Source: Schmidtea nova
Lineage: Eukaryota
Length of the DNA: 64,000 nucleotides
Reading direction: 5' to 3'
Assembly (NCBI GenBank): GCA_044892505.1
Contig: CM097882.1
Span: forward strand, 315,580,001 to 315,644,000
In this document: positions 13,301 through 63,613 of the stretch, piece after piece
How the letters are laid out: every line of letters begins with the position of its first letter
Numbering within the stretch: position 1 is the stretch's first letter
Made by a program: the position numbers and the translations under genes
The notes under the pieces: generated by a model
Databases searched by the model: none
Seen by the model: the letters and a program-made list of their open reading frames with translations, nothing else
What the model was told of the DNA's origin: nothing

Positions 13301-13910
13301 AAAAATATCATGAAGGGATCATACATGAATCACAATGTAGAAAATAGTTTCCTCAGCTTATCCTTCAATATTTTGAATTTTCCAAAACAAGAATTATTTT
13401 CATTTTTATGTCAACAAATCTTGATAATTATTTCAATGGTTTTAGTTGTATTTTATATTTTAAGTCTGATTAAAATAAAATTTATGACAAAAATTCTCAT
13501 TATTTAAATTATAATATTATATGCATTACAGTCGCATTTTGATACAAGCTCATCTCAATAAATAATTTAGAAAAAAATTTGTATACTTTCGGTTTCTTAT
13601 TTTGAATTCGTTTTTATAGAAATAATAAAATAAATTTTAAATAAATAAATATTTATTAAATTCTATTTTAGTTAATAGTCTATATAATTATTTTAATTAA
13701 TTAAAATAATTGAGAGTGTATTAAATTTTTAATAAATAATTTTTGAAATCTTCTGTTAAAATTTATAAAATAATTGTAATAATTTTTTGGTTGTTTAACA
13801 ACCTTCTTCAGCTTCATCTTGGATTTATCTCTTTTTACCGGTATTATCTTCTTAAGAATTCTTACAACCTTGCCTGTTTCCTGTTTGTTTTTACCGGGCA
13901 TAATACCTGA

Positions 13911-14681
13911 TTATTTCTTTTGCTGATAGGCAGCGCTAGTAGATGGTTGTTGTTGTTCGGCTTCGCTGACGCATGTTTCGTATTCATCTTCTTCACCTAT
14001 CGATATGATTGAGGGTAGTTGGAGATCTTCTGGTGTCTTCTTCCTTCTTTTTGCATGGTGTTGCTCCGATGTAGATGGTGATTCGGGTAACTTCCACTTC
14101 TGTTCAACAATCTCTGCCGTAGTTGTTGACCTAAATTCCTCCTGAGGTACACTGATATGGTCTAACCATTCATTTCTGATGTGTAAATATATAGCACGAA
14201 TTGCTAATGCCTCATTTGTAACCACAAAATTCCTTGGTTCTCCCGGCACTGTACGCAAAAATGTCTTCGCCAGGAATCCCAATCTATAATAGCCGTGAAT
14301 CTTAGGGACTCCCCGGGATTCTAACAATTTATTCGTGGATAAATCACGGATGCCTAATAATCTCTGCACTGGTAGATTGGCTACCTTGAATAAATCCTTT
14401 ACTAGAATGCCTACCACTATTTTCTTGTCACAGATTTTCCGTATCAAATGGTGACAATCCTCCTCGTCGAAGTTTCCTCGGATTTTCTGTTCGTTCAACT
14501 TATATTGGTGCGTCTGGTAGTGTTTAACTGGATCTTTGGGGGTCACTACTGCACTCAATAAATTATTCCCTCTTATATCCAAGATCGCTATCTGGATAAG
14601 CGTTTTCTTCATATCAATTCTCGATTTTGCAAATCCGGCCGACACAAAAACTGTGGCCTCATCTTCTTCCACTTTCGACAT
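13911..14681 (-). CDS. REX4/ISG20-like DEDDh exonuclease-fold protein lacking catalytic residues
   Basis: Collinear with the REX4 pattern (IAILD.RG..L, VTP..PV..YQT, KKIVVG, IRDLS, EALAIRAIY..W), but ExoI DxE reads SAG. Confidence 0.72.
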   Translation of the reverse strand: MSKVEEDEATVFVSAGFAKSRIDMKKTLIQIAILDIRGNNLLSAVVTPKDPVKHYQTHQYKLNEQKIRGNFDEEDCHHLIRKICDKKIVVGILVKDLFKVANLPVQRLLGIRDLSTNKLLESRGVPKIHGYYRLGFLAKTFLRTVPGEPRNFVVTNEALAIRAIYLHIRNEWLDHISVPQEEFRSTTTAEIVEQKWKLPESPSTSEQHHAKRRKKTPEDLQLPSIISIGEEDEYETCVSEAEQQQPSTSAAYQQKK

Positions 14682-14696
14682 ATTTCTCCTTACAAA

Positions 14697-15290
14697 TCAT
14701 CTGCTTTGTTGGAAATCCTCTTCATTAACATTATAAATCCATGTAGGCTCATTTCTACTCACAATCGGGTAAGGTTTCTTGTAATCTAAGATTTCTACAG
14801 CAATAATGGTATTAACTGCGGATGCCTGTAACATGATGTTACGTTCTCTACCATCAGCATGATACACCTCCAATGTGCAATGTTTATCCAATTCCACTGG
14901 TAGTTCCATCCCAGCCATAAACACTGTAATCGGTCTATTTATAGCATGGAGCCATATATTTCCTAACTTTGGGCATGAGCCATATTCTCTGCATATGTCC
15001 GCTACTTTTATTCTACCTTGGTTGTTCACAACTGTCACCATCATTTGCCTTCGAGGCCCTCCTGGAAATTTATAATCATTTGGGATATCCACCCTTCTCG
15101 GGTAGTACCAATAATTTGAAGTGAGGTGATTCATCTTCGCCGCCACCGTGGTTCCTATGAACCTGTAAACATACACCTCTTTGTATGTGCTATACACTTC
15201 TATATTACTTCTATTTTGGGAATTGTACGTTATCATAAGGTGTTGTTTGTTTGATTTTGTCGGGACTCTTAATTCTTCTGTAGAATTCAT
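14697..15290 (-). CDS. Hypothetical 197-aa accessory protein
   Basis: Intact ATG ORF whose stop lies 16 nt before the exonuclease ATG. Confidence 0.65.
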   Translation of the reverse strand: MNSTEELRVPTKSNKQHLMITYNSQNRSNIEVYSTYKEVYVYRFIGTTVAAKMNHLTSNYWYYPRRVDIPNDYKFPGGPRRQMMVTVVNNQGRIKVADICREYGSCPKLGNIWLHAINRPITVFMAGMELPVELDKHCTLEVYHADGRERNIMLQASAVNTIIAVEILDYKKPYPIVSRNEPTWIYNVNEEDFQQSR

Positions 15291-15452
15291 GGTTTTCTAA
15301 AAAGTAAAAATAATTAAAAGATTTTATCACTTTCATGATAGACCCTCCCAGGGTAAACCAAGTCGACATACACTGATGTCTGATTTTACAGTTGCTCTTT
15401 TGAGCCCACATTATTATCTACATAATTATAAATACTAATATCAAATAAATAA

Positions 15453-16511
15453 TTATATATTTACACTACCTATTCTCTGGTGAGATTTTCCCCTATACTT
15501 AGTCTCGTAGTAGTTTTCCCAATATCGTTTGTCCCTTAAAGTTAATCTAAACATCCAAAGGGTTGCTATTACTAATGCTAAAACCATACTGGTTACTCCC
15601 CCTATTATAACTACAAATAGCCAATTTGGCATTTTATCTTGTAACATCCCCCTAAGTTCTCTTTGACAGGTACAATTTGTTTTAAGTTTATTTACACGGG
15701 GTTGTATTTTACTCACTACCTTTCTTAGATCAATCAAAGCTATTTGAGTTATTCCTTCGCACCCAGGAATTTTTACTAAACTGGCCCTCCCTCGTTTGAT
15801 AGTTAGTTTTTCCATAGCAGGTGGTACCAGATCTAATAATTCATGATGTACTGTGTACCAACCAATTTTCTCTGAAAACTCCAAATATGTTATATTGGCT
15901 TTCGTTACCACTTTTGGTCGTATTGTCCATTTTCGATCTTGATATGATTGGTTGAGTACCAATATAAATATATGAGCGCGATTCTATTATTTTTCATCCA
16001 ATACTCATGCGCGAATTTTACCGTCTGCCCATGATAAGAAATCTCTACTTTTTCCGTAAATACTGCTGTTTTCAAAATCCATCCCGCTTTGTCATCACAA
16101 TTTCACCCGTCTGCAAAAATGTATGGATCCTCAAAAAAAGGTCTTGATTTCCAAGAGATATCCGGTGTTTGGCATTAGTCCTGCGATTACTTTCACTCGA
16201 TCCCATTTGTTTAAATGGAAAGATATACCTTTCTCAGGTGTTATCAGATATAAATCGTATCGGTGCCACTCTATTCTCTTTAAATAGAACCTGAATGCCA
16301 TATCAGTTCGTTGATATCATATATCTGGATGTTGACTCGACTCTGGTACAAACTTCTCGAATGCTTGACCTACCATCATGACGCAGCTGATTACTGTTAA
16401 AAATGTAATAGTTTTAGGAATCTGTCTAGATCGTAACGAGTATCGTTCTGGTTGACCCTTTAGGATACTTTTATATGATTCCAAAGTTTTCTTTTTCGAT
16501 TTCTTATTCAT
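15453..16511 (-). pseudogene. Type I membrane protein with FN3-like segment, frameshifted
   Basis: Hydrophobic signal-like stretch TITFLTVISCVMMVG; manual translation gives VKVIAGLMPNTGYLLEIKT (FN3-like); C-terminal TM WLFVVIIGGVTSMVLALVIATLW and a Tyr-containing tail. Confidence 0.55.
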
Positions 16512-16568
16512 TTCGAATTCGTCTGTTTCTGATTTTGGCTTCTCTTTTTCCGATGGAGCTATCTTTTT

Positions 16569-17660
16569 TCATCTATTTGCGTGAAGCACGATTGGCTCTG
16601 CTTTCTTGTTTGCTACTGACTGTAAGATCAAATTTGTCTCTGTGGCCTTCAATATTTGATATGGCCCTTTATAATTCCTCATAAGTTTCGGGGGCAAACC
16701 TTTTTTGTTATAATGTCCTTCTAACATGACATAATCTCCCACTAAGAATCCATGTTCTTTCGCTTTGCGATCGTGGTATTCTTTCATTGTTTCCTGATTA
16801 TAACGGATTTTTAAACCTGCTTTTTCCCAAGCTTCCTGCATTCTTTCTCTCATTTCAAATAAGTAATTCCCTTCTTCACAATTTTGCGAAGCTTTCGGAT
16901 AAAATATGAGATCTACTGGCATCTTGCTATGCCTTAGGTACATTAGATAAAAAGATATTTCTCCTGTGACTGAATGAACCGCATTCCTATATTCAAACAA
17001 ACATGACGGTTCACATATGAGCTCACATATGATGACAACATATTTGCCAAGGTTCCATTGAACCTCTCCACCAACCCATTCGTTTGTGGGTGGTATGGTG
17101 ATGTGTTTAACTTTAATATACCAAAATAATCATTTATGCTTTTCAGCAAATTGCTCATAAAATCCTTCCCTCTGTCGGTAAGTAATTTTGATGGAACCTC
17201 ATACCTAAATACAATCTTCTCGACAAATATTCTGGCAATTGTGTCTGTCTTATGGTTCGGAATAGAATATGCTTCTGGCCACTTTGTTAAGTATTCGTAG
17301 AAGACTAGTATAAACTTGTTTCCCATCGTTGATTCCTTAAACGGCCCAAGTACATCCATAGCCGTCATCTCCATAGGTGAGGATGGTACTGGCATTGGCT
17401 TTAGGGGTACATGAGGTTTCTTACCTGTATTCCGCCTTGTTACACATACTTTGAACGTTTGACACCACTTTACATCATCTTTCATATCTGGCCAAAAGTA
17501 TTTTGTTTTTAATCTGGACAATGTATGTCTTGCTGAGAGATGTCCTCCCAATGCTCCATCGTGGTATTTTAATAATAACGACTCTCTATACTTCTTTGGC
17601 ACTAATATCACATTGTCTCTCGTTTCCACATATTTAATTAAACCTTCTTCCAAGATAAAT
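16569..17660 (-). pseudogene. Gypsy integrase (zinc-binding, DDE core, GPY/F), one frameshift
   Basis: HDGALGGH, YFWP, AMDVLGP, LLTDRGKDF, PYHPQTNGLVERFN, YKGPY. Confidence 0.95.
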
Positions 17661-17666
17661 TTATCT

Positions 17667-18077
17667 TTATATTTCATCGATCGATCGGAAAGCATTTATG
17701 CAATCCTCTGGTGGGATTATCAATGGTACCGGGATAAGCTTAGCTCCCAGAAACGCTGTATAGCTGTTTGTCCCACAGTAATACTCAAATGTCGCTCTCT
17801 GTATTCGACATTCCCTCACCATGGTCCTATTAAACTCTGTTTGTTGATAAACATGGTATTCTAAATCATCCCGTTTTGCAACTTTATCTGGATATGCTTC
17901 CTTGCATTCCACTGTGTCTACTAATGAATAAATTTGTGCTAGTATCGGTTCACTACAATCATATGCTGTTAAGGAATTTGCCTGTCGCAATATTCCCATC
18001 ATTACTAATAACATCATCATCCAATTAGCGAATCCCCCCGTTCCCCGTGGATTATTTGGAATATTTTCTGTCAACAA
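17667..18077 (-). pseudogene. Env-like class III (gB/chuvirus-type) glycoprotein N-terminus, truncated
   Basis: Signal peptide then LTAYDCS..YSLVDTVEC..C.I....YYCG.NS, the AYDC pattern of chuvirus-like glycoproteins in invertebrate LTR elements. Confidence 0.7.
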
Positions 18078-18119
18078 TTTCTCGTTTATCTCATATTTTC
18101 CTTTTGATTCATTTGTCTC

Positions 18120-20531
18120 CTAAAACTTGTGTTCAGTCATCCATGTTTCAAAATTCACTTCTATGATATCGGTCAGCCTGTCTAAGGCTCCTTGAATTCC
18201 TGACGAATCGTCCTTAAGTATTATTAAGGTGTTTTTAAACATTAGGGCTAAAATCGTTATCATTTTCCCTTTTGTCAACCCTTCTTGCATAAATTGTCCT
18301 GCTACTTCAAACAGTTCTTGTTCCGTGGTGCCTCCCGGAATTTTTTTCATTGCCTTTTTAATCTTGTCTGTAATTTTCTCAACATTGTTAACTTTGTCTT
18401 TCTTGATTTGCCACTCGGGCTTTATCAGTCGTAATATTTGGTTCAATCTCCTCCACGTTTCCGTTTTACCACTAAAATCTCTTGCCCCTTTATCAATTGG
18501 GCTTACTATCCCTGCCAAGGCCTGCCTGTTTACGCTTTGTCTCGTAACTGGCCTTAGGAGTTCTCTTGGAGGCGGGTTCATTTGACTCTTTCTTGGTCTC
18601 CCCCTTCTCTCCTTTCTCCTATTTTCAACAAATCTCGGGCTCATCCTATCCCTTGATGGCCCAATTCCCTGCGAAGTACTAGCTCCGATGTTCGTTTCAT
18701 TTCGGTTTAATCTTATACTTTCATCTTCCATAGGTGGGATTATCTCGACCAACTCATCCTCGGAGTTGTCAAATTCTCGTAAATATCGGTCTATTTCAGC
18801 ATTTAAATCTACAGTTTCCCCTGTCTGTTGGCGGGTATCAGCACCTGCCTGTTGTTGCTCGGGAGGGATCTCATCCTTCTCCAACTCAGCATCATCTGGC
18901 AATCTCAGCGTTGACCATTGGTCCTCTGGAAGTTCGACCAATAATATCAGTACAATAGTTTCCTCTCGCGGAAAACATCCTACATCTACCAAATATTCGT
19001 CGTAATCAACCTGACAACCATGTATCATTATTATGAATGACTCTTACTATTGTTGATACTCGTTTCCTCAGTTTCTTTACTTTATGGAAACACGAAAATT
19101 GTTGTATCATGTGTCCTTTCCTGGGTATCCTGATATCCAACATTACTGGACCTTGTCTATTATCCTGGTGTCTAGTAGCATGCCCATTTTTAATTACTAG
19201 CGTCTTTGCTTGCGTTTGAAATGGTGATGTCCCTTTCAATAAGGGTACCACCAATGGCATTACCTCTCTCAGAGTATCTACTGGGATTCGTAACTCCAGT
19301 ATCCAATCCATTATCATCTTAATGGCTTCCCCGTCTCTCGGGTTTTGCATCAGCTCTATCCCCAACCTTTGTGGTATCGCTGATATTTGATTTAATTGCT
19401 CGATTTCCATTTCAGTTATTGTTAGGACATTGTCTGAGTCCACTACTGTAACAGTTTCCTTGTGAAACTTTGCTTTTACTAGCATTTGTTTTCCTGGTAT
19501 TATACCACAATCTAACAGGGTTTCTCTCTCCAATAATTTCTCTCCCAACAAATATAGTTCGCATTTCAGTCGAGGTTTTACCTCAGCGACTTTCTTGACT
19601 AATGCTTCGACTTTTTCACTTGGGTTTATTGTATATCTATAAAAAAACCTTTAGGTAGGACTACAAAAACTATGGAATCCTCTAGATTTCCTTTTTGCTT
19701 CCAACTTAATCCTACGTTTCGAAGGATTTCTCTCAATACCGGATGCTATTCGTCATTTCGGTTTAATTCCAATACTATGTCCATTACTTTATCAACCTCA
19801 TTCTCATTAATGGGGTTTAATCTGATATCTTCCAGCCTCTGTTCTACTTCTCTTTGCCATACGTTCCTGTGACGTAATAGCATTTTACAGTCATCGATGG
19901 GGTTACCTTCCTCTTTCGATGCTTCTCTAACTTTTATTGGTTTGCTACCACCATCATCTCTCTGGGATGATGTGGCTATTAAGACTTCCGGCTCACTGAC
20001 AGAAGCCCATCGTTTTTCCAAAACCTCTGTTGGATACTCACTGTTAACCACTGGATCTATGTCCATGGCTTTACGAGTTTTACTAGGTGAAACCGGTAAA
20101 CCTTCTTTTTCTCTGTTGGCCTCTGGCTCTATGACCATAGCCTCTCGATTTTTACTGGGTGAAACCGGTAAACCCTCATAACAACTTTTGACCTCTGATT
20201 CCCTGACCATGGCCTCTCCCTCTTTGTTCTCCTGTGGACTCTCTTGAAGCATCAATACGTCAAGTTCTGTTACAATATCATTATTCGTATTACGCTGTGC
20301 ACAACTATCTTTGTTTCGCCATCTTCTGGCTGACAACATGTAAATCTCGGCTTCATCTTCGCCATACTCATCAATTTCATTTGTCGTTAGCCTTGCTAAC
20401 CTATTTCTCTCTTGAATTTCCAATTCAAGCTGTTGTAAATAAGTTAATTTATGATCTGAATGCACTGCAAATGTAGTCTGTTTCGGTCGACTTTTACCAT
20501 TATTATTATTATTCCCGTTATTGTTATTCAT
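18120..20531 (-). pseudogene. Multidomain accessory ORF (~800 codons): low-complexity N-term, CARD-like, two ubiquitin-like, Bcl-2-like
   Basis: ORFs 19746-20531, 19006-19551 and 18120-19028 join through one stop (19746-19748) and two frameshifts (~19645, ~19030) that fall inside recognisable domains. Confidence 0.65.
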
Positions 20532-20546
20532 TAACTGATTTTGTGG

Positions 20547-20960
20547 TCACGAACGCATCATATGACCAAGTTTTCCACACGTATGACATTTAATTTTACC
20601 CCCCGAATTCACTTCGTCCCTCTTTATATTATTATTATTTGCAAAATTATCACTCTTATTCTGAAAATTTTTATTATTATTACTCTGAAAATTTCTATCG
20701 GGGCTTCTTTTTCTTTTATTATTATTGTTAAAATTATTACTTGAGTTATTCCCCCCAAATCTAGTTTTACAAACTGACGCTACATGTCCCTTGCGTTTAC
20801 ATTTCTCACAACTCAAGTCCGAAAATCTGCAGTTTGCCGCCACATTATTGTTTCTCCCGCATTTGGTACATGATTTCCCCTGTGGAATTATTTCTACTCT
20901 TTTTTATGACAATTAAAACACTCAATATCGGACTTATCTATAATACTAATTCGCGACTGT
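20547..20960 (-). pseudogene. Multi-CCHC zinc-knuckle (gag nucleocapsid-like) segment
   Basis: CEKCKRKGHVASVC, CHTCGKLGHMMRS, CTKCGRNNNVAANC and a truncated ECFNCHKK. Confidence 0.8.
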
Positions 20961-24023: not shown

Positions 24024-25575
24024 TTATAAAAAGTCAGTAATTTTAGTTTGCCTTCCATTAAACAATTCTTTATCCATAAAGTTCTCTAAAGTTGATAACG
24101 CGCGATACACTTCGTCTGTAAGATTCGTTTTTGAACACAAATATTCACTACACTTACTTAAAAAATAACGCATTTCTTTGTTTGTAGGTGGAATCGGCGC
24201 TGTAAAGGCATTTTGGATGCTAGAAAAGACATTGTCATTGTCATTGTCATCTTCATCTTCCTCTTCGTGATTTTTAATCATGTTTAAAATATCGGAATCT
24301 GTTGGATAGTCCGTTATAACCATGTCTTCATCTACAGACAAAAAATCACCAAGAGACACTGTATTGCCGACATTTTGTTGATTATAAATGTCAAACACGG
24401 ATCTCAATTCTGACAGAGGCATATCATCTTCACTACAATTGCTTTCGCCGTGTTTTTTGAAGCCAGCCTTTGTGAAATAATTTTTTATTGTTGCTTGCTG
24501 TACATCGGTGTTCCACGCTTTCGACAAGTTTGTAATAGCATCCCATAAAGTAATATTTCCCGTCTGATTGTCTTCTTCTAAGGCAATTAAAGTTTTTTCT
24601 CAGAATTCTTGTTCTATAGTGCAATTTCATATTGTTGATAATTCCTTGGTTCATAGGTTGTAATTTTGGCGTCATTTTTGGTGGGAGAAAAACTACAAGA
24701 ATCGAATTAAGCTGCTTCGTAATTTTTGGATGTGACGGACAGTTATCCACAAACAGCAATATTTTACGTTTTTCGGCATTAAATTTCTTGTCTAAACTAG
24801 AAAGCCATTCTTCATAAACTGCGCTTGTCATCCAAGCCTTTTTGTTACTTCTGTATATCACTTGTAAAAAACGTTTTCCTTTGAAGCAACGCGTATTTTG
24901 GGATTTTCCAATTACCAACAGTTTTAGTTTTCGGTACCACACATATTGGCTCCCACCATGACGGTGATTCTTTCTTTGCTGTGCTTTCTGCCGAAGCACT
25001 TTTCGTCTTTAAAGGTTAACGTTTTATCACGCAAACATTTAAAAAATAAGCCCGACTCATCCGCGTTAAAAATGTCTTTTTCATGATAAGATGCTATAAT
25101 TTCCGGTAAAATATTGTTGCGCCACTCTTCACAATTATGTTCATTGACATCTGCACTTTCACCACACAGAACCTATTGAATAATATTATGCCTCTTCTTA
25201 AACTTATCTAACCAACCTACACTGGCGACGAAATTGGTGTGTCCCAGACTCTCAGCAAAATAAAGTGCCTTTTCCCTAATAAATAGGCCAGACATTGGTA
25301 AATTCTTTTCCCGAGCAATTTTAAACCATTCCAAAGTAACTTTTTCAATGTCTTCGTAGGTACAGTTTTTAAAACGTTTGCGATCAGTAGTAACACCATT
25401 TTCGGCCTTCTTCATAATTTCTTCGCGGTTTTTTATAATTGAAGAAAGTGTATTTGGAGTAATCCCAAAGTCTTTAGCAATCACTTTTCTTTTTAATACC
25501 TTTATCAACTTCACTTATCAACCTCACTTTGTCAGATAACGACATCGTATTTAGTTTTGTTTTCTGGCCACTCAT
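24024..25575 (-). pseudogene. Tigger/pogo (CENP-B-like) transposase, frameshifted
   Basis: HTH (AKDFGITPNTLSSIIKN), ASVGWLDKFKKRH, IFNADESG, YRSNKKAWMT, LLFVDNCPSH, LQPMNQG. Confidence 0.92.
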
Positions 25576-43678: not shown

Positions 43679-44433
43679 TGTTTTTGTTGATTTATGTATA
43701 GTTACTTTTGTTAAAAAATGTTATTTCTTTTGTATGTTTGTGTATGAGAGGAAATTATCTAAGAGCCCGAGAGAGTCTTACAATATCAGTGTGCAGACAC
43801 TCGGGGTGTATGCTGTGTAATTAGGTGCCTGTATGTGGTGTACGAATTTACAATAGTTAAAATAAAGACTGAAAACAAATAAACAACTTTCAGCAAACAA
43901 CTCTATTTTTAAAACAAACAGTTACTCACGTATCCTGAGTACATTGATAGGGAAAAGGTAAATTGATGTATTGCTGATTTGTTTCACAATAGATTAAATT
44001 GTTGTATGGCTGATTTGTTTGTAAATAGATTAAATTGTTGTATGGCTGATTCGTTTGAGAATTGAGTAAATTGTTGTATTTAAATATCAACAGGTTTGAT
44101 ATGTTTGGATAAAGCAATGGATAAAGTAATGGATGTTAAACACTATGTTAAGTCAGAACATATAATAATAGAAATTGTCAGATTAATGTCGAAAATAATT
44201 AAAAAATCAATATTCCTAATTTTTTTAATTTGGCTTACTATAGCATTATATACTATTAGTAAGCCAAATTCAAATTTTAAACTAAAATTATAATTAAAAT
44301 AATAATCTACATGCACGCAAATAAAAAGGGGGTTCCCCGGTGACCGCAAGGGCACCAACCATTATAATGCCGGCGCTAACAATGATAATAACAATAATAA
44401 TCATAAAAATAGCAACTAGATATAACCTTTACA
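43679..44433 (-). mobile_element. 3' LTR of a Gypsy element
   Basis: PPT AAAGGGGGAAG precedes TGTAAAGG on the minus strand; distal end abuts (TA)n; ~38-bp internal repeats at 43960-44080. Confidence 0.85.
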
Positions 44434-44599
44434 TAACTTCCCCCTTTAAAACCGGAGGTTAACATTTGAACGAAAAATTTACAGATTACCAACGTAAATT
44501 TTAAAGATTAACCTATTTTTAATGTTTTTTTTGTTTTGTTTTACAACCATTAAACAATAAAAGTTACAACATTACACAAAAAATAAAAACTGTACAATT

Positions 44600-47500
44600 A
44601 GCTATGTTGTGCATGTGTTTTGCTTGTGTGTATTTCTTTTTTTATTTAAAGCATTCGCTGTATCGTTTTATGTATAGGAGTGTGATTATTGTGTCTTTGT
44701 CGAACAGTATTATTGAGTTTTTGGAGTTGAATGAGATGTGTTTGTGGTTTGGTTGTGTTTTTGTTTGTGTCGGCGCTTTTTCTTTTGTGGGGTTGTTTGA
44801 GATGTTTTGATTGTTGTGATACGGTTTTATTCGTCTTAGATTGATTCTTGTTTTGATTTTGTCTTTTATTATTGTTGCCACATTTTTGTTAATTTTCAGT
44901 AGTTTGAATGGGCCTTCGTATTTTAGTTCGAAACCTCGAAATGTAGTCTGTCGTTAGAACTACTTTTCCATCCATTTCGGAGTTCGCTCTCTTTTTTAGG
45001 ATTCCTTTTAATTTCTTTTCTACTCTTTCGTTGTTTGTGTTGGTTGTTTGTTTGTTTGTTTCTGCGTTTTCTGCTGTGTTATTTTTAAGTGTTGGGAGAT
45101 TTGATTCTCTGCCAAAGACTTTGTACGAAGGGCTTTCGTTCGATCGAGTTGGGAGTGTTCCTTAATCCTAGTAAAATTATCGGAAGTTCGGACAACCAAT
45201 TTATGTCGTTCGCTTTGGTTCTGATACTTTGTTTAAGTGTTCTATGCAGTCTTTCGACTTTTCCATTCGCTTGTGGGTTGTAAGCGGTTGTTCGGTTCCG
45301 TTTTATTTCGTATTTTTTACATAGAGCACTGAATATTTCTGATTCAAATTGCCTTCCTTGATCTGTTATTAGTATTTTGGGTTGTCCGTAGCGAGCTATC
45401 CAATTTAGCTCGATGTTGTTACATATATTCTGTGCGGATATTTCTTTTAATGGGACAATTTCGAACCAGTTTGTCTTTCTGTAGATGATTGTTAGTAAGT
45501 AGTTGTACCCGTTGTTTGGTGGTAGCGGTCCTACTATGTCAATGTGAATCCACTCGAAAGGTTGACTGCTTGGAAAGTTTACTTTTTGTGCAATTGGTTT
45601 TTTTTGATATTTTGCTGATTTGGCACTTTTTGCATGTTTTGACGAAATCTTTGATTTCTTTCCTCATGTTTTGTCATATGTATTTGTTGTGGATTATTTC
45701 ATAGGTGGCTCTGCTTCCTGGATGACTGATGTCATGTATTTTCGAAATACACGTTTTTCTAAACTCTTTTGGTAAGAGTATTCTTGGTGTAGTTTTGTTG
45801 CTGACATCGTACCAGAGGTCACTTCTTTTCTCTAGTTGCAGACTGTGTTTTATTATTTTAAGGTTTCTGATTGTTTGTTTTTGATATGTTCATTTTCAAT
45901 CAGTTCGTCAAATTCGAGTGCATTTATATCTGTTCCTATTCTTGAAAGGGTATCTGCTGCAATGTTTGCGGCTCCGGCTATATAATTAATTGTGCAATTA
46001 AATTGTGATATATAATTTAATTGTCTTATTTGTCGTGGTGATGGGTTTTTCATTTGTATCGCGTTTGTTAACGGTTTGTGGTCCGTATAGATTTTGAAGT
46101 TTCTTGCTTCCAGTAGGTGCTGGCAGTGTTTGATGGCTTCATGTATCGCGAGTAGTTCTCGATCAAAGGTTGAGTACCGTGTTTGATGTGTTTTTAGTTT
46201 TTTTGAGAAAAACCTGATTGGTTGTTTGTTGTATTCGTTATCTTGATATAAGGTTGCGCCCATTGCATATCCAGAGCAGTCTGTTGCTAGGTTGTAGTCC
46301 AGTTCTGGATTTGGATATCCGAGTAATGTTGCTTGAGATAAGCTTGTTTTTGCTTTTTCAAACTGTTTGGTTGTTTATTCGGTCCAGTTTATTTTAATAT
46401 TTCTTCTTGTTTTGATCAGGTCGTTTAATGGAGCTAACATTTCGCTGCAGTTAGGGATGTAAGCATGGTAAAAGTTTACCATTCCCAAAAATCGTCTTAA
46501 CTCTTTGTTTGTATTTGGCAGTTTGAACTCTTGTATTGTGCTTTTTTTCTTGTCTATTGGCTTTGTGCCTTTTTCGTCCAGTCTGTGTCTAAGAAAAAAT
46601 TTTTTTTTTCAAAAATTCGCATTTTTGAATGTTTATTTTGAGATTTGCTGAGTTCAGCGTTTCAAACAACTTTTCTATGTCTTTTAAATGAATAGTTTTG
46701 TTTGGACTTGCTATGAGTATGTCGTCCAAATATGCTATGGTGTTCTGATTATTTTTCAGAGTCATGTCCATAAAGCGTTGAAATGTTGCAGCTGCATTTC
46801 GCAAACCAAATGGCATTCTGTTGTATTCGAACATGCCAATTGGTGTTATGATTGTTGTTTTTTAATGTCTTCGTTCCTGATCGGTATTTGGTGATTAGCC
46901 TTCTGTAAATCTATTTTTGTGAAGAGTCTTGCACCTTTTAGTCTTTTTATTATGTCTCTGTCGATAGGCAGTGGTTAGTTGTCTGGTTCTGTGATTTTGT
47001 TGAGCTTTCGGTAGTCACCACAAGCTCTCCATTCCCCGTTTGCCTTTTGTTTGAGCATGAGTGCAGAGGACCAATCTGAGTTCGAGTGAGTTACTATTTT
47101 GTTTTCTAGTAACTCCTTGAAAATTTCGTTTGTAATTTTTGTTTTTTGTGGATCTAGTTGTCTCACCTTTGCATGCACTGGGTTTCCGTTTTTTATAATT
47201 GCATGTTCGGTTGAGTGATCCGCGTTTTTGTCGAAGGTTACTGGTTCGATGAGTTTTTCGAATTTTCCCAGTAGTTTATTTATTTCAGGGTCATGATTCA
47301 ATTTTTGTTTTTGTTTATTGTTAGGTAGACCCGTTTGAATAACGCCTATGTCTATTTTTGAATCGGTTGTTGCATGGTTTTGACTGTTTCTTTGTCTGTG
47401 TTCGTGTTTTCAGTTAATGTTTTGTTTCGGCAGTCTACTGTAAGGTTGTAGTGTGCCGGAAAGTCAGCTCCTATTATGGATTGTTGAACATCAGCGATTA

Positions 47501-48260
47501 TGAATGTCCAGCTGTATTTTTTTTTAATTGATTGTTAAAGTTAGTGTGTGTTCGCCAAATGTTTTAATGTTTGTACCATTTGCTGCAGTTAAATGTTTTT
47601 CTGCGTTTTTTGAGTTTTTGTGCCGGTGATGGGGTAATAAGGATATCACAGAACCTGTGTCAATTAGAAATTCTGTGTTGTTTGAGTGCACCATGAATGT
47701 ATTGTTTTTGTCACCAAATGTCTGTGCTATCATCGGTGACATTTTTAGTTTCCATGCTCTGTTTTATTAAATTCGCAGGGTTGTACGCATTTAAATGCTT
47801 TCCCCCCGAATTTATTGTGGAAATAGCAGAGATTTTTGTTTAGGTAATTGTTTCTTGAATCTCTTTCTGGGCTTATGTTTCGGTAATTGTTGAATCGATT
47901 AGGGGAGTTTGACCGATTTCTGTAATTGTTGTTTGGTGATTGACTTCGGCTGTAGTTTTGTCTATTGTATTCTGAAGGTTGATTGTGGCATTGTCTGTTT
48001 TGACCGTCTGATGGTTGGTCTCTGTTGTAGTTGTATCTGTTGTAACTATCGTATGATTGGTTTGAGTTAAGGTTTTGTTTGTTACATCGTTCTTTTATTT
48101 CGGCTAGTTCAGCTTTTATTTGTTTGTTTTCGACTTATTTCGTCGAATTTGCCGATTAGGGTGTTCATTAGTTTGTTCATGTTTTCGTTTTGTTCGGTAT
48201 TTTTGTTGTATGAAGGGTTATTGTAGTTTGTTTTGTTTTTGTTGTAGTTTTGGGTGCTGA
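44600..48260 (-). pseudogene. Gypsy gag-pol remnant (PR, RT, RNase H, IN), frameshifted, 5'-truncated
   Basis: FLIDTGS, WRACGDYRKLN, MPFGLRNAAATFQ, YLDDILI, ELLAIH..TDHKPL. Confidence 0.95.
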
Positions 48261-50602
48261 ATATTTTGCACAATTCACTCAGACATGCATTAAAAGAACT
48301 GACCATAGATATTGAAAATATTGTCTTAAAAATCAACTGTCATTTTAGTCTTTCAGCAAAACGTCGAGATGAGTTTCATGATTACTGTGAATTTTTGAAT
48401 GTCGCGTTTACTGATTTTTCATGTCATGGTTATCGTTACGAACTTGTCTAGAAAGGTTATTACGTGAATGGCCGGCATTAATATCATATTTTCATAGTAA
48501 TATTGGTGATTTATCTGTATCTTTGAAAAAGGCTTTGCATTTTAAAAATGAAGAGATATCAGTTAAAATGGAGATACATTTATTTTTCGCCAACCACCTA
48601 CTTTAAATTTTTGAAAATTCGATAAACTTTTTAGAAAATAATAGCACCACACTTATCGACTTGTACGCGATTCTAAATGATTTTAAGCAACAACTCACTT
48701 CTAGAATTGAGAATACTTTTTTTGGGTATTAAACTGCGAAAAATGAAGGATTTATCTTTATATGAAAAGCAACAGTTTGAAAACGAATTTTTAAATGTTT
48801 ATAAAAAAGCTTTGTCTTATGTAGAAACAACATTTGATTTCGATGAAAATTCTTTAATCGTTAAGTTATCAAAATTACAAATTGATAATTCATTAACAAA
48901 ATGGCCAAATTTTGAAATATTTTCAGAAATAGTTGAAAGATTAAATATTTGGGATCATGTAAAAAAATGAACTTTTTTAAACGCATGTAAAAAATGACTT
49001 CTCGACAAAAAAAATTTATTTTATTAAAAATATTATATTTATAAAAAATTACAGTAGATATGTTACAATAGATATGTTACAATAGCACAAATTTTTTAAA
49101 ATATTAAGGAGTTTGAATTTAATCATTATTGACCACATCCCAATCATATTTGAGTATCTCAGAAATCTTTTGATAGCTTTTTTTTTGTAAATAGTCCGTG
49201 AAACAGAACTCCATCAGCAAATTATTTCTTCCCACTGTATTTAAGCCTTTCATTTCTTTTAGCTTCATTTTAAGCTTATTGTTCCAACTTTCAACATTTT
49301 GAGTATGTACTCCTGTCACTGGGCACACAAAGTGCAGTTTGTGACATACCGTCGTGTGTTCATAATCGTTAAGCAACCGCAACTCTCTGTAAATGGCCAA
49401 TTCATCCGAATGGATTGTAGTACCATTCCTCACTACACGTGCAATAATTGGCAATAGGATTCGTTTAGAACGGTTGCTTACTACTTCAGCCCACCCAGTA
49501 GCGGTCGATGAACTAGTATCAACGATAACCAATGCATAAATTTGCGTGTGCGGACTTCTTCCACGGTTGCTCTTCGCCTTGAAATTAAGCATCGTTTCAT
49601 CGCAATGGCAAATGACATGGATCCCACCTAATCGAAGTGGATACACCCTAAAATAATTAGTGATTCGATATATTAATAAATTTCTTTGATAAACTAGGAC
49701 GAGAGATATGCACAAATTTCAGAATTTCACTCTGATTTAATCCGTTGGACCAATAACATAAAATTTTTAAAAATGGTTTCGGCTTGATGGTCAGCTTCTC
49801 CAAGTGGCTCCCTTTACGAACACTAACACTTGTGGTGAAAATGGAACAATGCTTATTGGTGCAAACCCATTTCATTTTGAGCCAAGCAGCTTTACATTTC
49901 TTTAGTTTCATCGTTGATAAACACGTTGAGCACGTCTGTTCATCTCTTCAAATGCGTTTGTTGAACATAAAGCGTAGAATTTCTGTTTCATTCATCAAAG
50001 TTATCATTATCGATAATATTTTCAAAATGCATCGATTTTTTTAAAAAAAGTAATATTTATTTTTACATGATCCAATATTTGTAATATAAACATGGACAAA
50101 CTTTTTGAAGAAGTTGTGTTTATTAACGAACATTTGAAATACATTACTAAATCGCCTGATTGGTAAACTTAATGTACTACCACCGATAAATGGAACATTA
50201 TTTTTTCAAAATACAACATCTGATAATGAAAATGTATTTAAAATCTTATCATATATTTTAAGCATACCTGCTTCATTGTCATTTATTGAACGTGTATTTT
50301 CAATTATGAATAATAAATGGACTGATGAAAGAAATAGGTGTTCTTCTGAATTTATTAGAGCAGAACTTCTCATTAGCGTCAATTCGCAAAGTAGTTGCGT
50401 AAAATTTTTTAAAATAATACAAAATGACATTGAATTATTAAAATGTGCAAAGAATGATAAAAAATATAAGTTTAGTCATAATAAATAAAAACTGCTGTGT
50501 AAAAAATCTTTAATTTACAAATATACTGAATTGTTTTTTATTCATTATTTTTTTGGTTATTGATTTGTCCTACTTTGAGCCTCTCAATATGTGGCAACCC
50601 TA
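48260..50602 (+). mobile_element. hAT element 3' half, interrupted by Merlin
   Basis: RWLSLRTCLERLLREW-like and SIPAS..IERVFSIMNNKWTDERNR motifs; terminus GTGGCAACCCTA at 50602; the reading frame continues across the Merlin TSD. Confidence 0.85.
48952..50073 (-). mobile_element. Merlin DNA transposon (second family), frameshifted transposase
   Basis: TIRs GGATCATGTAAAAA/TTTTTACATGATCC; perfect 8-bp TSD AATATTTG; CDETMLN, TIHSDE and TGVHTQNVESW motifs. Confidence 0.93.
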
Positions 50603-51833
50603 GTTATATATCGGTTTAATATAAAAATCACAAAAGTAACAAGAAATAATGGTATAAGCAAAGAAATATCAAAATAAGTAATTGTGCAAAAATTAATTAA
50701 AATTTTTCAAAAATTTAAAATTAATATTCATTGGAGGAAGTGAGTATGGTTGAATGCCAAATCAAACGACAAATCCAAAAATAATAATAAAAATTTAGTA
50801 AGGGGTCCCCAGAGAAAGTTATATAGTAAAAACAAACTAATTAAAATTAATTAATCGCTCAATAGGAAGCCTGAGCGCAGTAGAGTCCCGTGAGATCAAA
50901 GGCGGGAGATTGCGCAGGGCAATTAAGGAGAATCCACCTGAGCGCAAACATAATAATTTGTTGATGGACCAATTAAGTTTTTGATTAAATTTAAATTTCC
51001 ATTTGCTATATGTATAAAATGCAGCGCAAAGTAAAGGATGAGGTCAGAAACTGGCAGATTAACTAACAGAAAGATATTGAAATTTATTGAAATTAACCAA
51101 GAGAAAGAAAAGAGAGAACTTGTGTAATTCGAAAAAGACAATAAACAAAGTGAGGAAAGATATTTTGTAACCGTCCTAACGAGAGGATCAAATCCTAATA
51201 AGAAAGAAAGTGCAAATTGTTGAGAGTTGCTGGGGTCATGGAGGGGTTAGATGAAAAATGTTCTAACAATGACTAGGGATCCCTCATCCATGATCATACA
51301 TAAAATTGCAATTATACACTCAAGCGCCCTTGACTATTTCCCTATATAATCAAGTTGGTGATGCGCAGGGTGGTTAAACAATGATGGGCAGGTGAGCACT
51401 ATCGCTAGTACTACTCCCCATTTATGTTTACGGGTTCATTGCTGCCGTTAGAAGGACTTACGCTTTGATCATTTGCTATGTACTCCACAATAAACTTTCG
51501 GGAAATTTATCTTTGACCTCACTCATTCTGCATGAAGTTTTCTAACATAATGCTCACTTAATTATTTATTTACCTTCCTTATGTATCTTGTGTTATACAT
51601 TTATATTTTTTGTATTACAGGTATCTAATTATTCATTATTGCGTCACGAATATGATAAACTTAACACCATAAAACTGCTTGGTCGATTTATGGTTAAAGC
51701 ATGTTTAAAATAATAATACGAGCGAATGATTATTATGTCAAGAACGTGATAGATTTAATAACACAAAACTCAAAACAAAAACCACTGATAAACATTAAGA
51801 TTTTTATTTAGGAACGATCATTGTTAGAAAATG

Positions 51834-52338
51834 TTATCGCCGAAATAGGCTGTGTAGTTCGCTGTTGATTGGCATCCGTCGCAGTCGAGCCCAAGAAAAT
51901 TGGGGTTGCCCATCCTGACATTCCTTGCCAAACGGTTTCCTCGGCAGAAACGCTTGTAGTCCCAATTGGCATAACTCTCGGCGAGGGATATGTCCCCAAT
52001 AAATTATTCGACTCGGTCGCCCTCCCGCGTCATTTATCACAATGACTATTCGTCCAAATTTGTTCGAATAAGGCCTTTGGGAAATTGGCCAATTTGGTCC
52101 TCCCCGGTAGAGTATCTGATCGTTTCCTCTAGCCTATATGGAAAACGGGCATTTTCGACCAAACCCGTGCCTCCACTTGTACATTTGAGCATTGATGGTT
52201 CACAATATTGGTGCAGGTAGCTCCTTGAGTTGAGAGGTCGTTCCACTCTCTACCCTTCCTTGTTCCCACTTTCGAATTTGGGTTAATCTTTCCATAACAT
52301 CAGCTGTTGACATCTGCATCAGTTTATCAAACATAAGA
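51834..52338 (-). pseudogene. Orphan ORF (~167 codons, two in-frame stops) downstream of an LTR leader
   Basis: Manual translation MFDKLMQM...LYRGGPNWP...GRIVIVINDAGGRPSRIIYWGH...SLFRR; GC-richer than flanks. Confidence 0.45.
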
Positions 52339-52432
52339 ATATAGGATTTAACGGAAAAAAATTGTCGGAAGATTTACTGATACCGCGTATAACAACAAAA
52401 ATTGGTTTAAAATATGATTAACTTTATTTATC

Positions 52433-52702
52433 TTCGCCGTGATCTACCACGGTCGGAATAAGGAATTCATGATTAGTCCTGTGCTATGTACAGCATTCAG
52501 GAAGCATAAAATTTATTCAAAAATTCTCCGCGCTATATACAGCGATCGGACTATAAATTAGGTAATTCCGCGCCATGTACGGCGATCGGTCTATTTTTAA
52601 TTTTTTCAATTTAGTTTGGATTTTCCGTCGCATGCTAATGCGATCGGAATTTATTGATCGTACTACTATGCATGTGATGTGATAGTTCCGAGTGAAATCG
52701 GA
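52433..52702. ncRNA. Array of covarying bulged stem-loops (candidate cis-acting RNA element)
   Basis: Four hairpins with loop ATNTAC and different but fully paired stems, plus two variants. Confidence 0.55.
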
Positions 52703-53017
52703 CTTTGACCCTAGTTGAAAGTTATCATTCTAGCGAAATTATTTGAATTAATTCTATTTGTTATTCGCCTTTATCGATTCTGGGGGGTTTAATTTTTTGC
52801 TCATTTTACTAGTTGTTCTGATGATGAGTCTGCCCTGCCCTGGGGTGTCCCTCATTATCAAGCCGCTCTCCGCATTCTCACCATTCAACCCTCGACGCTC
52901 ATCCTCTGTGCAACCTAGCATTAACCAAATTAGTTATCATCAGTAAATTGTCTAGATTAGATCGAATTTCAGACATTTTATTAAACAGAAATTTTAAACT
53001 AAAATGACTACTAAAAA

Positions 53018-53730
53018 GGTTGAACCGCCATGTGAGACCGTGAAGCCCCACAACGACGACTCGGGCTCCATTGCCGCGTGAGCAGCCTAGGAAGCATAAC
53101 TATATGCATTAAATGAATAATATCAAAAACATAATTACTATAAAGTTATAATACATGGAAATCATGAGTACATAAAATTATTATTACACAATTAAATAAC
53201 CAATAAAAATAAAATGTTACGTTCCGTACTTGTTTTGAATTGAATGTGTCTTCGGAGTTGAAATTAAGAATGTTTCTCGAAATTAGTGAATAAACGTTTT
53301 GTAAGTTGACAAAATAGGTTTTTCAAAATTCCTTTTTTACGGTTAAGTTGTGATTTTCGGATCGGTATTTATACTGATCCGTCTGGTTGGATTGACCAAT
53401 CAGGATCAGACCGTCCATCAAAGTATTTTTATTATTTTATTTAAACCTAAACATTAATTTGTTTCCTTTTCCGGTTTCTCGCTGAGTGGTCCTGATTTTT
53501 CGAGTAATTAATTAATTATTTGCACTATTATTTTATTTAATTCTATCTTTTCTTATTTCAGGCCCCCTTTTGCTGTTGTTTACCGGTTTATTTTCAAAAT
53601 TTCCTTTTGCTGGAAACTTATCAAATATTATTTGTCATTTTATTCTTATTTTTAATTTGTTTTTATTGTTATTTTTATGTTTATTATTTCCTTATTATCT
53701 TATACTTTCGTTCATTTATTGTGATTTTAA
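53018..53730 (-). mobile_element. LTR-like segment with candidate tRNA-Gln-like PBS
   Basis: Minus strand ...GTCTCACA followed directly by TGGCGGTTCAACC; TATAAATAC and CCAAT boxes at ~53385-53400; distal end uncertain. Confidence 0.5.
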
Positions 53731-53899
53731 GTGATTTGGCGGGCCCAACAGAGTGTACATCCTATTGATTAAAACAATTTGGGATAAATTGTAATTTGTG
53801 GTGATCATCAAATAAATTGTTCTGTGTTGGGTTTCATTGATTTTCGATAATTAAAGGACACGAGGAGTCAGGTCATTGAACCGATCTTAAACAACACAA

Positions 53900-61235: not shown

Positions 61236-61341
61236 TACTGAAAATATTTTTAAATGAAACAAATACAATGACAACTAGTATTTATAACAAATATAAACAA
61301 TAATACTAATTTAATATAATTTTTAAATATGGAATTAAGAA

Positions 61342-61955
61342 ATGATGCTAATAATGATGCAAATTGTTGGTCCGAGCGGGAGTGGAAAAACTTTATTAGT
61401 TTGTAAATTATTACAATCGAAATTATTCAAATCTAAATTCAATAAAATTTATTGGAATAGGGGCGCTGACGATGAACAGGGAATGACTCAAGATCAATTT
61501 TGTAAAATAAAAATGACAATCATAAAAGGTTTCGATAAAAACTGGTCATCTAGATTACGCCAAGGAGATGTGATTATTATTGATGACTTGTATCAAGAAG
61601 CCAACAAAGAAAAGGACTTTAATAATTTATTTACGAAAATCAGTAGACACAAAAGCGTTACAGTTATTTTTATCACTCAGAATTTATTTCATCAGAGCGG
61701 TAGTCATCGAACCCGCAATTTAAATGTTCAATATCTGCTGTTTTTAAAAATCCTAGAGATGCAACAGTTATTGACTTTCTGGCAAGACAAGCTTACGTTT
61801 CTAATCGTAACTTCCTAATTGATGCGTTTCAAGATGCTACAAAATCTCCTCATGGATATATTTTCCTAGATTTCACGCAACAATGCAATGATGATTTAAG
61901 AGTTAGAACTGATATTTTTAACAAGGAAGGAGCCATGGTTTATAAACAAAGTTAA
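61342..61955 (+). pseudogene. A32-like packaging ATPase (one frameshift)
   Basis: Walker A GPSGSGKT, Walker B VIIIDDL, ISRH..VIFITQNLF. Confidence 0.93.
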
Positions 61956-62738: not shown

Positions 62739-63613
62739 AACGTATAGAATCAATGATTTGTGGCAAATGGATTTAATGGAAATGATTCCGTATTCGGCAA
62801 TTAACAAGGGATACAGGTATATTTTACCATGTATTGATGTTTACAGTCGTTTTGCTCGGGCCGCCGCAGGTAAATCTAAATCTGCTAATGACATGGTAGA
62901 GCCAATCAAGGCAATGATGAAAAAGGATCGTCCAACTAATTTACAAACCGATTTGGGTAAGTTTAAAAAGAAATTTAAATATTTAATATATTTTAGGAAA
63001 GGAATTTTACAACAGTAAAGTCGAGAAAGCTATTAAGGGAATAAATCATTATTCGGTATTCTCTCAATTCAAAGCAGCTCATGTCGAGTGATTTAATCGA
63101 ACTTTACGTGATCGCTTGAAAAAATACTTTGTTCACAAAGGCAATAAAACCTGGATTAATGTTTTACCACAAATGATTCACAGTTATAATCATAGTGCTC
63201 ATCGGGGTATAAATGGTAGGAAACCGGTCGAAGTAGTTGATACTGAAAATACTTTGAATGATACGAAAATAAAGAAACCAAAATATAAAATAGGTGATCA
63301 TGTTCGAATTAGTAAAATTAGTGCATCGCCATTCATTAAACATTTTGATAGTAATTGGAGTGATGATGTATATCAAATATCGAAAGTCAACACATTGCAG
63401 AATCTTGTCATGTATACTATTTCTGACTCTGATAACAATATAGTCAGTGGTAAATTCTACGAACAAGAATTACAAGTTATACCCCCACCCACAATATTTA
63501 GAATTCAAAATATACTGAAAACTAAAATGGTGGGTAAGGATAAACAATACTATGTCAAATGGCAGGGATATAAAGAACCATCATGGATATCATCAAAAAA
63601 CCTCGTAAAATGA
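62569..63613 (+). pseudogene. Polinton integrase with chromodomain; 40-nt intron 62957-62996; two stops
   Basis: MEKIWTNPKDDAGFGGV, WLSGQPAYSLNKP, LWQMDL, CIDVYSR, LQTDLG|KEFYN, YVKWQGY. Confidence 0.92.

Follow-up and report, generated by a model that had tools for sequence, protein, structure and literature searches.

Control of unspliced RNA by a protein acting together with an RNA element is a mark of the complex vertebrate retroviruses, among whose elements RxRE and RcRE are located in the LTR. LTRs can also house, or overlap with, accessory genes, as is the case for MMTV sag, foamy virus bet and HIV nef. The available parts of the sources describe Rev, Rex, Rec and Rem as small, spliced, Arg-rich proteins that act on structured elements of intron-containing RNA (PMC2661877, PMC3856414, PMC12789967). 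Among Gypsy retrotransposons, Burro (GYPSM1) of dugesiid planarians shares with the element analysed here a length of ~30 kb, a CCHC Gag, very many copies, an env-like mononegavirus fusion domain between gag and pol, and ankyrin, MATH/TRAF and RING domains; as far as the accessible parts of its published account go, that account names neither LTR-encoded ORFs nor LTR RNA structure (PMC6431247). Burro1 is an abundant, PIWI-controlled transcript according to the accessible part of another report, so that this class of element is expressed in a planarian (PMC8532177). Our literature search found no description of ORFs or hairpins in Burro LTRs, the original Burro paper, its supplements and the Repbase entry (which may note LTR ORFs) lying outside that search, and when Gypsy elements of invertebrates were searched for a Rev-like system, a single paper came up, on foamy viruses.

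The window analysed here is a 64,000-nt stretch of Schmidtea nova DNA. An earlier note on it had described six TAR-like bulged hairpins with compensatory stems, arrayed at window 52433..52702, and all six were found there:

52687-52702 (minus strand): H1, a simple hairpin, weakly kept; all five pairs intact in 19 of 30 copies
52623-52649 (minus strand): H2, A-bulged, with a loop unlike that of the core units; matched in 47 of 87 distinct copies
52568-52589 (minus strand): H3, GUANAU unit with a C-G closing pair; in 61 of 103 copies
52527-52550 (minus strand): H4, GUANAU unit with a U-A closing pair, reading UGUANAUA; in 103 of 103 copies, with double changes at three pairs
52477-52502 (minus strand): H5, GUANAU unit with the most covariation; in 98 of 103 copies (ten with an altered loop), with double changes at four pairs
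52435-52455 (minus strand): H6, GUANAU unit with a G-C closing pair, the last of the array; in 103 of 110 distinct copies

The core of the array consists of the four units H3-H6 (52435-52589), each with a lower stem, a 5' bulged A or AN, an upper stem of 4-5 bp and a GUANAU loop. Loops of the core units are spaced 35-63 nt apart, and a copy carries between two and four GUANAU units. A scan of the 296-nt minus strand for the arrangement stem, 5' bulge, 4-5 bp and hexaloop found five units; two or more were found in 0 of 2000 dinucleotide shuffles, and the remaining 63.7 kb of the window holds two per strand. The folding z-score of the same 296-nt region is -3.45 on the minus strand and -2.95 on the plus strand. 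In predicted folding each unit alone forms a hairpin, with the outer loop bases paired in three units, while in the minimum-free-energy structure of the whole region (296 nt, minus strand) H3, H5 and H6 pair across units instead of locally. Rfam gave no match near threshold, either for the window region or for a full LTR.

Comparison of genomic copies revealed that the hairpins are held far more constant than their surroundings. Among the 46 of 87 distinct copies that hold H2-H6, per-column variation was 0.029 in stem pairs, 0.036 in loops and bulges and 0.142 in spacers, the spacers thus varying about five times more than the stems. Covariation was scored in an alignment (A2) of 94 sequences covering H4-H6, with 22 pairs; A2 includes the ten copies whose H5 loop is altered, which the flank test leaves out. 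Seven of the 110 distinct copies gave no H6 match and were excluded from the pair counts, and those of the H6-less copies that we viewed (L118, L130, L136, L152, L158) have unrelated DNA 5' of ORF-A, an LTR gene described below. In A2, 97.3% of 2068 pair cells are paired, and both sides have changed at 7 of the 22 pairs. The covariation score is 0.189, with slid-structure controls at or below 0.116; the number of double-change pairs was matched by 33 of 500 shuffles, in an alignment whose copies are related to one another. H6 shows no double change in A2, and one of its positions is unpaired in 13 of 94 cells. Divergent families carry other stems, for H6 too, and among them a G-C pair has become C-G while the loop is unchanged.

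Genome-wide, with the pairing left free, one unit pattern gave 2,898 matches, compared with 5 for a control. At a pair where both C-G and T-A are common, only 69 of the genome-wide matches were mixed (31 T.G and 38 C.A) and 97.6% were Watson-Crick. The 97.3% pairing, the double changes and the roughly fivefold lower variation of stems relative to spacers bear out the claim that structure is under selection; the hairpin array is real, conserved, covarying and under selection. It very probably acts as RNA, and its unit, with 2,898 matches to one pattern, is a new covarying RNA motif even if its partner should prove to be a host protein or Gag.

The element-sense (minus) strand had been named as the RNA, which our data support as likely. 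Of 179 distinct units, 124 fold better on the element-sense strand and 37 on the opposite one, and in a conserved neighbouring block (53013..53103) many G.U pairs are near-invariant when it is read in the element sense. Divergent units show nine G.U and two A.C in 188 cells. Clade-level wobble events on the units numbered eight for G.U and three for A.C, which is not significant (p 0.23), the wobble test at one pair genome-wide was neutral (31 vs 38), and the flanking pair of H6 suits the opposite strand in 70 of 103 copies. The element-sense strand is favoured, but not proven, as the functional RNA strand.

According to the earlier note the array lay downstream of an LTR and its primer-binding site (PBS). 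This turned out otherwise: the array sits inside a solo LTR, at LTR positions 1049-1316, and in a full copy it is ~1.9 kb upstream of the PBS. The LTR and its borders are as follows:

51228..53750 (minus strand): solo LTR of a Burro-type Gypsy, TG...CA, 2523 bp, with an internal deletion of ~0.72 kb relative to its 3.26-kb relatives; sharp ends common to relatives
53751..53754: target-site duplication, 4 bp, the same four bases at both flanks
51224..51227: target-site duplication, 4 bp, partner of 53751..53754
51626..51640 (minus strand): internal-deletion junction; ORF-B (198 aa, Arg-rich) removed from the window copy

A DNA search gave 40 scored matches of 82-100% identity from 544 candidates, and the ends of the matches show that the array lies inside one TG...CA unit of ~3.2 kb with a 4-bp target-site duplication. 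Among 40 further loci, 35 LTRs could be delimited, comprising 23 solo LTRs with matching target-site duplications, three LTRs followed by a PBS-like word and nine in 3'-LTR context. Most genomic copies, that in the window included, are solo LTRs. The empty site of one solo LTR (L033:117-3382) is present in three of four sequence runs, which behave like DNA contigs, so that this insertion may be polymorphic. The PBS candidate of the earlier note did not hold up, being internal to the LTR, present as seven variants in 35 LTRs and forming the 3' arm of an 18-bp hairpin. A different word, presumably of tRNA-Pro type, follows the 5' LTR ends, and the PBS is likely to lie directly after the LTR end. 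Two blocks of the LTR stand out by their conservation, the first of which holds the former PBS candidate:

53013..53103 (minus strand): two-hairpin block ending in a T5 run; 90% identity over 35 LTRs vs 47-51% in non-coding spacers; z -2.69
51228..51467 (minus strand): U5-like, near-invariant block at the LTR 3' end; 96.5% identity over 35 LTRs

The two hairpins of the first block (~95 nt) have UCAC-type loops and are G.U-rich, and the block might serve as a packaging signal or as a cassette for a small RNA. A distant LTR family (family D, see below) has another two-hairpin block in the same position after the donor. In the second block, of 240 nt, there is a hairpin capped by a GNRA loop, as well as another TATA-like word; one short stretch of it, common to distant families, reads on the opposite strand as a perfect splice donor.

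Judged from its sequence, the parent element is a Burro-type giant Gypsy of ~29.7 kb with an env-like gene. The window LTR shares 94.6-96.6% identity with the 5' LTR of one full copy, which spans 29,727 bp and has LTRs of 3261 bp (99.4% identical) and a 4-bp target-site duplication. Pfam domains occur in it in the order zf-CCHC, Monjiviricetes_fusion, RVP, RVT_1, RT_RNaseH and rve, and RING, ankyrin and MATH/TRAF domains are encoded as well; the array is present in both LTRs and absent from the internal region. The copy examined differs from Burro in that its MATH/TRAF ORF is 3' of pol. BIR and BCL2-like domains and a single ORF1 of ~5,000 aa were not seen in this one full copy scanned, the coding region of which is in pieces.

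Several observations concern the element and its neighbourhood. A RING-finger ORF of 153 aa (L032:5849-6310, minus strand) lies between the PBS and gag and is followed by tandem repeats. In place of a plain polypurine tract, a GC-rich stretch that is palindromic in part and ends in GTGA comes before the 3' LTR (L003:2880-2910; L177). A decayed Gypsy on the minus strand (44.4-48.2 kb, within window 43800-48250), with RNase H and integrase (Pfam), was considered as the parent element and rejected, there being no LTR in common; it is a separate element, unrelated to the solo LTR. Elsewhere the window contains fragments of an ISXO2-like DDE transposase (49119-49718), a hAT dimerisation domain (50138-50488), a DDE_1 transposase (24433-25008), another integrase-bearing element (13900-20900), a P-loop ATPase (61339-61818) and a chromodomain (63092-63613). 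A Pfam env search found mainly shorter env-carrying Gypsy families with unrelated LTRs, and shorter Gypsy families (L101-L116) have open frames of ~3,400 aa with a mononegavirus-type fusion domain. Near one solo LTR, a 1,201-aa open frame combines Hsp70, ubiquitin and DUF1759 domains (L048:3-3605, plus strand).

Within the LTR, two ORFs lie 3' of the array, ORF-A (159 aa) and ORF-B (198 aa). ORF-B is deleted from the window copy, and ORF-A is left as a remnant:

51834..52313 (minus strand): remnant of ORF-A (159 codons in relatives), interrupted in the window copy by two premature stops

Of 107 loci, mostly selected for their similarity to ORF-B, 74 have an intact ORF-A and 82 an intact ORF-B. 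For each ORF 150 pairs were sampled, and those with dS 0.2-2 gave a median dN/dS of 0.15 for ORF-A (56 pairs) and 0.09 for ORF-B (88 pairs); by this sequence-based measure both ORFs are under purifying selection. With two conserved orphan genes in them, solo LTRs may not be inert. We found no homologues of ORF-A or ORF-B outside the genome in searches that included PDB sequences, the Atlas giving only scores under 0.9. A fold search with the ORF-A model (pLDDT 66) ended without a match (best Z 3.7), and the idea that ORF-A is an SH2 protein, raised by a weak sequence match (E 1.1), is unsupported.

ORF-B has a coiled coil and an Arg-rich motif, and is modelled as long helices, a linker and a helix with the Arg-rich motif (pTM 0.26); in the basic motif, G and R residues stay unchanged even where identity falls to 25%. 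A search with ORF-B produced 9,842 first-look candidates, a figure that is no copy number. Pfam REV matched 4 of 30 ORF-B members below the cut-off (best E 0.0085), and the two matches that were located fall in differing protein regions, both in the family that lacks the array. The basic region also resembles that of bZIP proteins (bZIP_1, one member, E 0.0047, below the cut-off), and it may serve as a nuclear signal or in DNA binding. Inspection of ORF-B by eye revealed no canonical leucine-rich export signal, its amphipathic C-terminal helix having no clear export pattern, and no Cys-rich domain is present.

Which of the two proteins goes with the array can be asked of loci that differ in their gene content. 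When 20 loci were picked solely by the unit pattern, ORF-B was found downstream in 19 and ORF-A in 11, and in the nine loci without ORF-A the array stands directly before ORF-B (38-52% identical). Such retention of the array beside ORF-B in ORF-A-less loci points to ORF-B, not ORF-A, as the partner. On the other hand, a distant LTR family with homologues of ORF-A and ORF-B (family D; 20 loci, L198-L217; 5,417 first-look candidates), whose ORF-B is ~30% identical and keeps a basic motif, though another one, has no such array, showing scattered GTANAT stems in 4 of 17; family D thus keeps ORF-B without the array, suggesting that ORF-B does not need it. Family D provides just one contrast, which is compatible with co-evolution as well as with independence. 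After its coiled coil, family D ORF-B has an xQT word, which we take to resemble a dynein light-chain site. We saw no array in a third distant family (L113/L114, L137-L146), but this family is too decayed to count. An LTR family without ORF-A (L178-L182, L187, L191, L196, L197) was observed to have an array of two to three units immediately before ORF-B.

The LTR also contains candidate signals from which a transcript map can be predicted:

53366..53403 (minus strand): predicted LTR promoter, CCAAT at 53396-53403 and TATA at 53366-53374, with a putative start near 53340; conserved in the LTR alignment, with the same layout in family D
53217..53232 (minus strand): candidate 5' splice donor(s), weak; in the LTRs listed, GT occurs at this spacing from the TATA box
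52314..52316 (minus strand): predicted 3' splice acceptor (CAG), immediately preceding the start codon of ORF-A; all 74 intact ORF-A copies have an AG no more than 2 nt ahead of the ATG
51557..51570 (minus strand): AATAAA, candidate poly(A) signal, conserved

CCAAT and TATA are conserved as a pair (LTR positions 348-385), and the TATA box is centred in a conserved inverted repeat (window 53358-53381). An AG lies within 2 nt before the ATG in all 82 ORF-B copies as well as in all 74 ORF-A copies, despite differing flanks. In family D, a consensus-type donor is present in 12 of 17, a polypyrimidine-TAG precedes ORF-B in all 14 listed and an AATAAA follows ORF-B in 12 of 14. From the predicted start to the array there are 640-910 nt, and from the last loop of the array to ORF-A 89-235 nt. 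Because an invariant AG precedes both ORFs and family D shows the same order, the array is likely to lie in an intron, the first, of a sense LTR transcript. Transcription would likely run from after the TATA (LTR ~380) to the AATAAA past ORF-B, a start and a poly(A) site that together would give an R of ~2.3-2.4 kb, and splicing to the AG before each ATG would then likely reach ORF-A and ORF-B, removing the array.

The idea of a multivalent protein-binding platform, put forward in the earlier note, is still the best class of explanation, and the array probably is such a platform. Three functions had been offered for it, of which control of export or splicing fits best, packaging is possible and TAR-type transactivation is the least likely. 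By analogy with the retroviral systems, we tentatively read the array as a Rev/Rex-like response element, a landing pad for ORF-B that would control splicing, export or 3'-end choice. At a guess, ORF-B would be made first, from spliced RNA, and ORF-B oligomers might then bind the bulge/GUANAU units on unspliced RNA, favouring its retention, export or read-through. A more far-reaching proposal, which we hold to be doubtful, is that an env-carrying giant Gypsy independently evolved a switch of the complex-retrovirus type wholly within its LTR: an R of ~2.4 kb would give rise to spliced mRNAs encoding two orphan regulators, of which the Arg-rich protein would bind an intronic GUANAU array to license unspliced read-through genomic RNA, with thousands of solo LTRs as free-standing regulator genes acting in trans.

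A host RNA-binding protein could take the place of ORF-B and, in a CTE-like manner, set the stability, translation or export of the element RNA; we think this unlikely. Pumilio is the candidate that can be named, because units closed by U-A read UGUANAUA. UGUANAUA is a Pumilio site according to the accessible part of the source (PMC4947167). At least one UGUANAUA unit is present in 101 of 103 copies (in the window H4 and H5, not H3 or H6), the U-A pair of H4 is invariant (103 of 103), divergent loci have U-A closing in 42 of their 47 units, and the lack of the array in family D fits independence from ORF-B. However, H3 and H6 retain GUANAU but close with C-G or G-C (57 of 61 and 103 of 103, respectively), which breaks the Pumilio element, and such retention of GUANAU with other closing pairs favours a reader of loop and structure over a linear site. 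Moreover, PUF proteins read single strands, while bases 1 and 8 of UGUANAUA are predicted to be paired in the units, and the place predicted for the array is an intron. Pumilio elements and NORAD-type repeats, as far as the accessible part of their description goes, resemble the array in having repeated UGUANAUA words in repeated structured units (PMC4947167); they differ from it in that here the word occupies a hairpin loop and is paired at its ends, and that in other units the loop is kept and the word lost.

That the array is a packaging signal, its repeated loops bound by the zinc knuckles of Gag and its intronic place limiting packaging to unspliced RNA, is in our view improbable. The array is ~1.9 kb upstream of the PBS and absent from family D, it would also mark the short unspliced RNAs of many solo LTRs, and the two better conserved structured blocks of the LTR are stronger candidates for such a signal.

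The units could also be imagined to work as double-stranded DNA, as spaced palindromes for a dimeric transcription factor, possibly with ORF-B as a bZIP-like trans-activator. The upper stems do form palindromic half-sites 6 bp apart, and the weak bZIP_1 match lies over the basic region of one ORF-B member, but the arms co-change (97.6% Watson-Crick at the two-state pair), which independent half-sites would not need to do, bulge and loop are one-sided features, and a long distance separates the array from the TATA box upstream of it. We regard action as DNA as very improbable.

The comparison with lentiviral TAR, in which hairpins of the nascent RNA would recruit a trans-activator that raises elongation, holds for the shape and fails for the position and the details. 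Like TAR, the units have a stem, a 5' bulge, a 4-bp upper stem and a hexaloop, they would lie in R by the predicted map, and an Arg-rich protein is encoded nearby. TAR, however, is a single hairpin at the 5' end of the RNA, with a U-rich bulge and a G-rich hexaloop, whereas here two to four GUANAU units with an A(N) bulge are found 640-910 nt from the predicted start, they have no Rfam match, and ORF-B is without the Cys-rich domain of a Tat-like protein, and we regard TAR-like action as very improbable. Functionless local repeats with arms kept complementary by template switching are largely excluded, for although one-step compensatory changes are possible by that route (PMC8794818, in the part of it available) and the units resemble old duplicates of a single ~24-nt unit, the loops and bulges, which switching does not protect, are conserved like the stems (0.036 vs 0.142 in spacers) and the units persist in families with ORF-B just 38-52% identical.

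We return to the preferred reading, that of a response element for ORF-B, and to the systems it most resembles. With MMTV sag, foamy virus bet and HIV nef, ORF-A and ORF-B have in common that they are presumptive regulatory ORFs within or overlapping an LTR; they differ in that here two ORFs are wholly in the LTR, downstream of the LTR promoter, and are present in solo LTRs, and that no homologues of them were found. Compared with the Rev/RRE type of system, there is no sequence homology, the RNA element consists of separate small hairpins and not of one branched fold, the protein gene is wholly in the LTR and has no recognised export signal, the element is a Gypsy and not a retrovirus, and the function is a predicted one. 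What the putative pair would share with Rev/RRE, Rex/RxRE, Rec/RcRE and Rem/RmRE, so far as the available parts of the sources describe these, is a structured element on intron-containing RNA together with a small, spliced, Arg-rich protein of the same element (PMC2661877, PMC12789967). If ORF-B does bind the array, the two would constitute a new RNA-protein pair, small and easy to test, and would be convergent with Rev and Rex.
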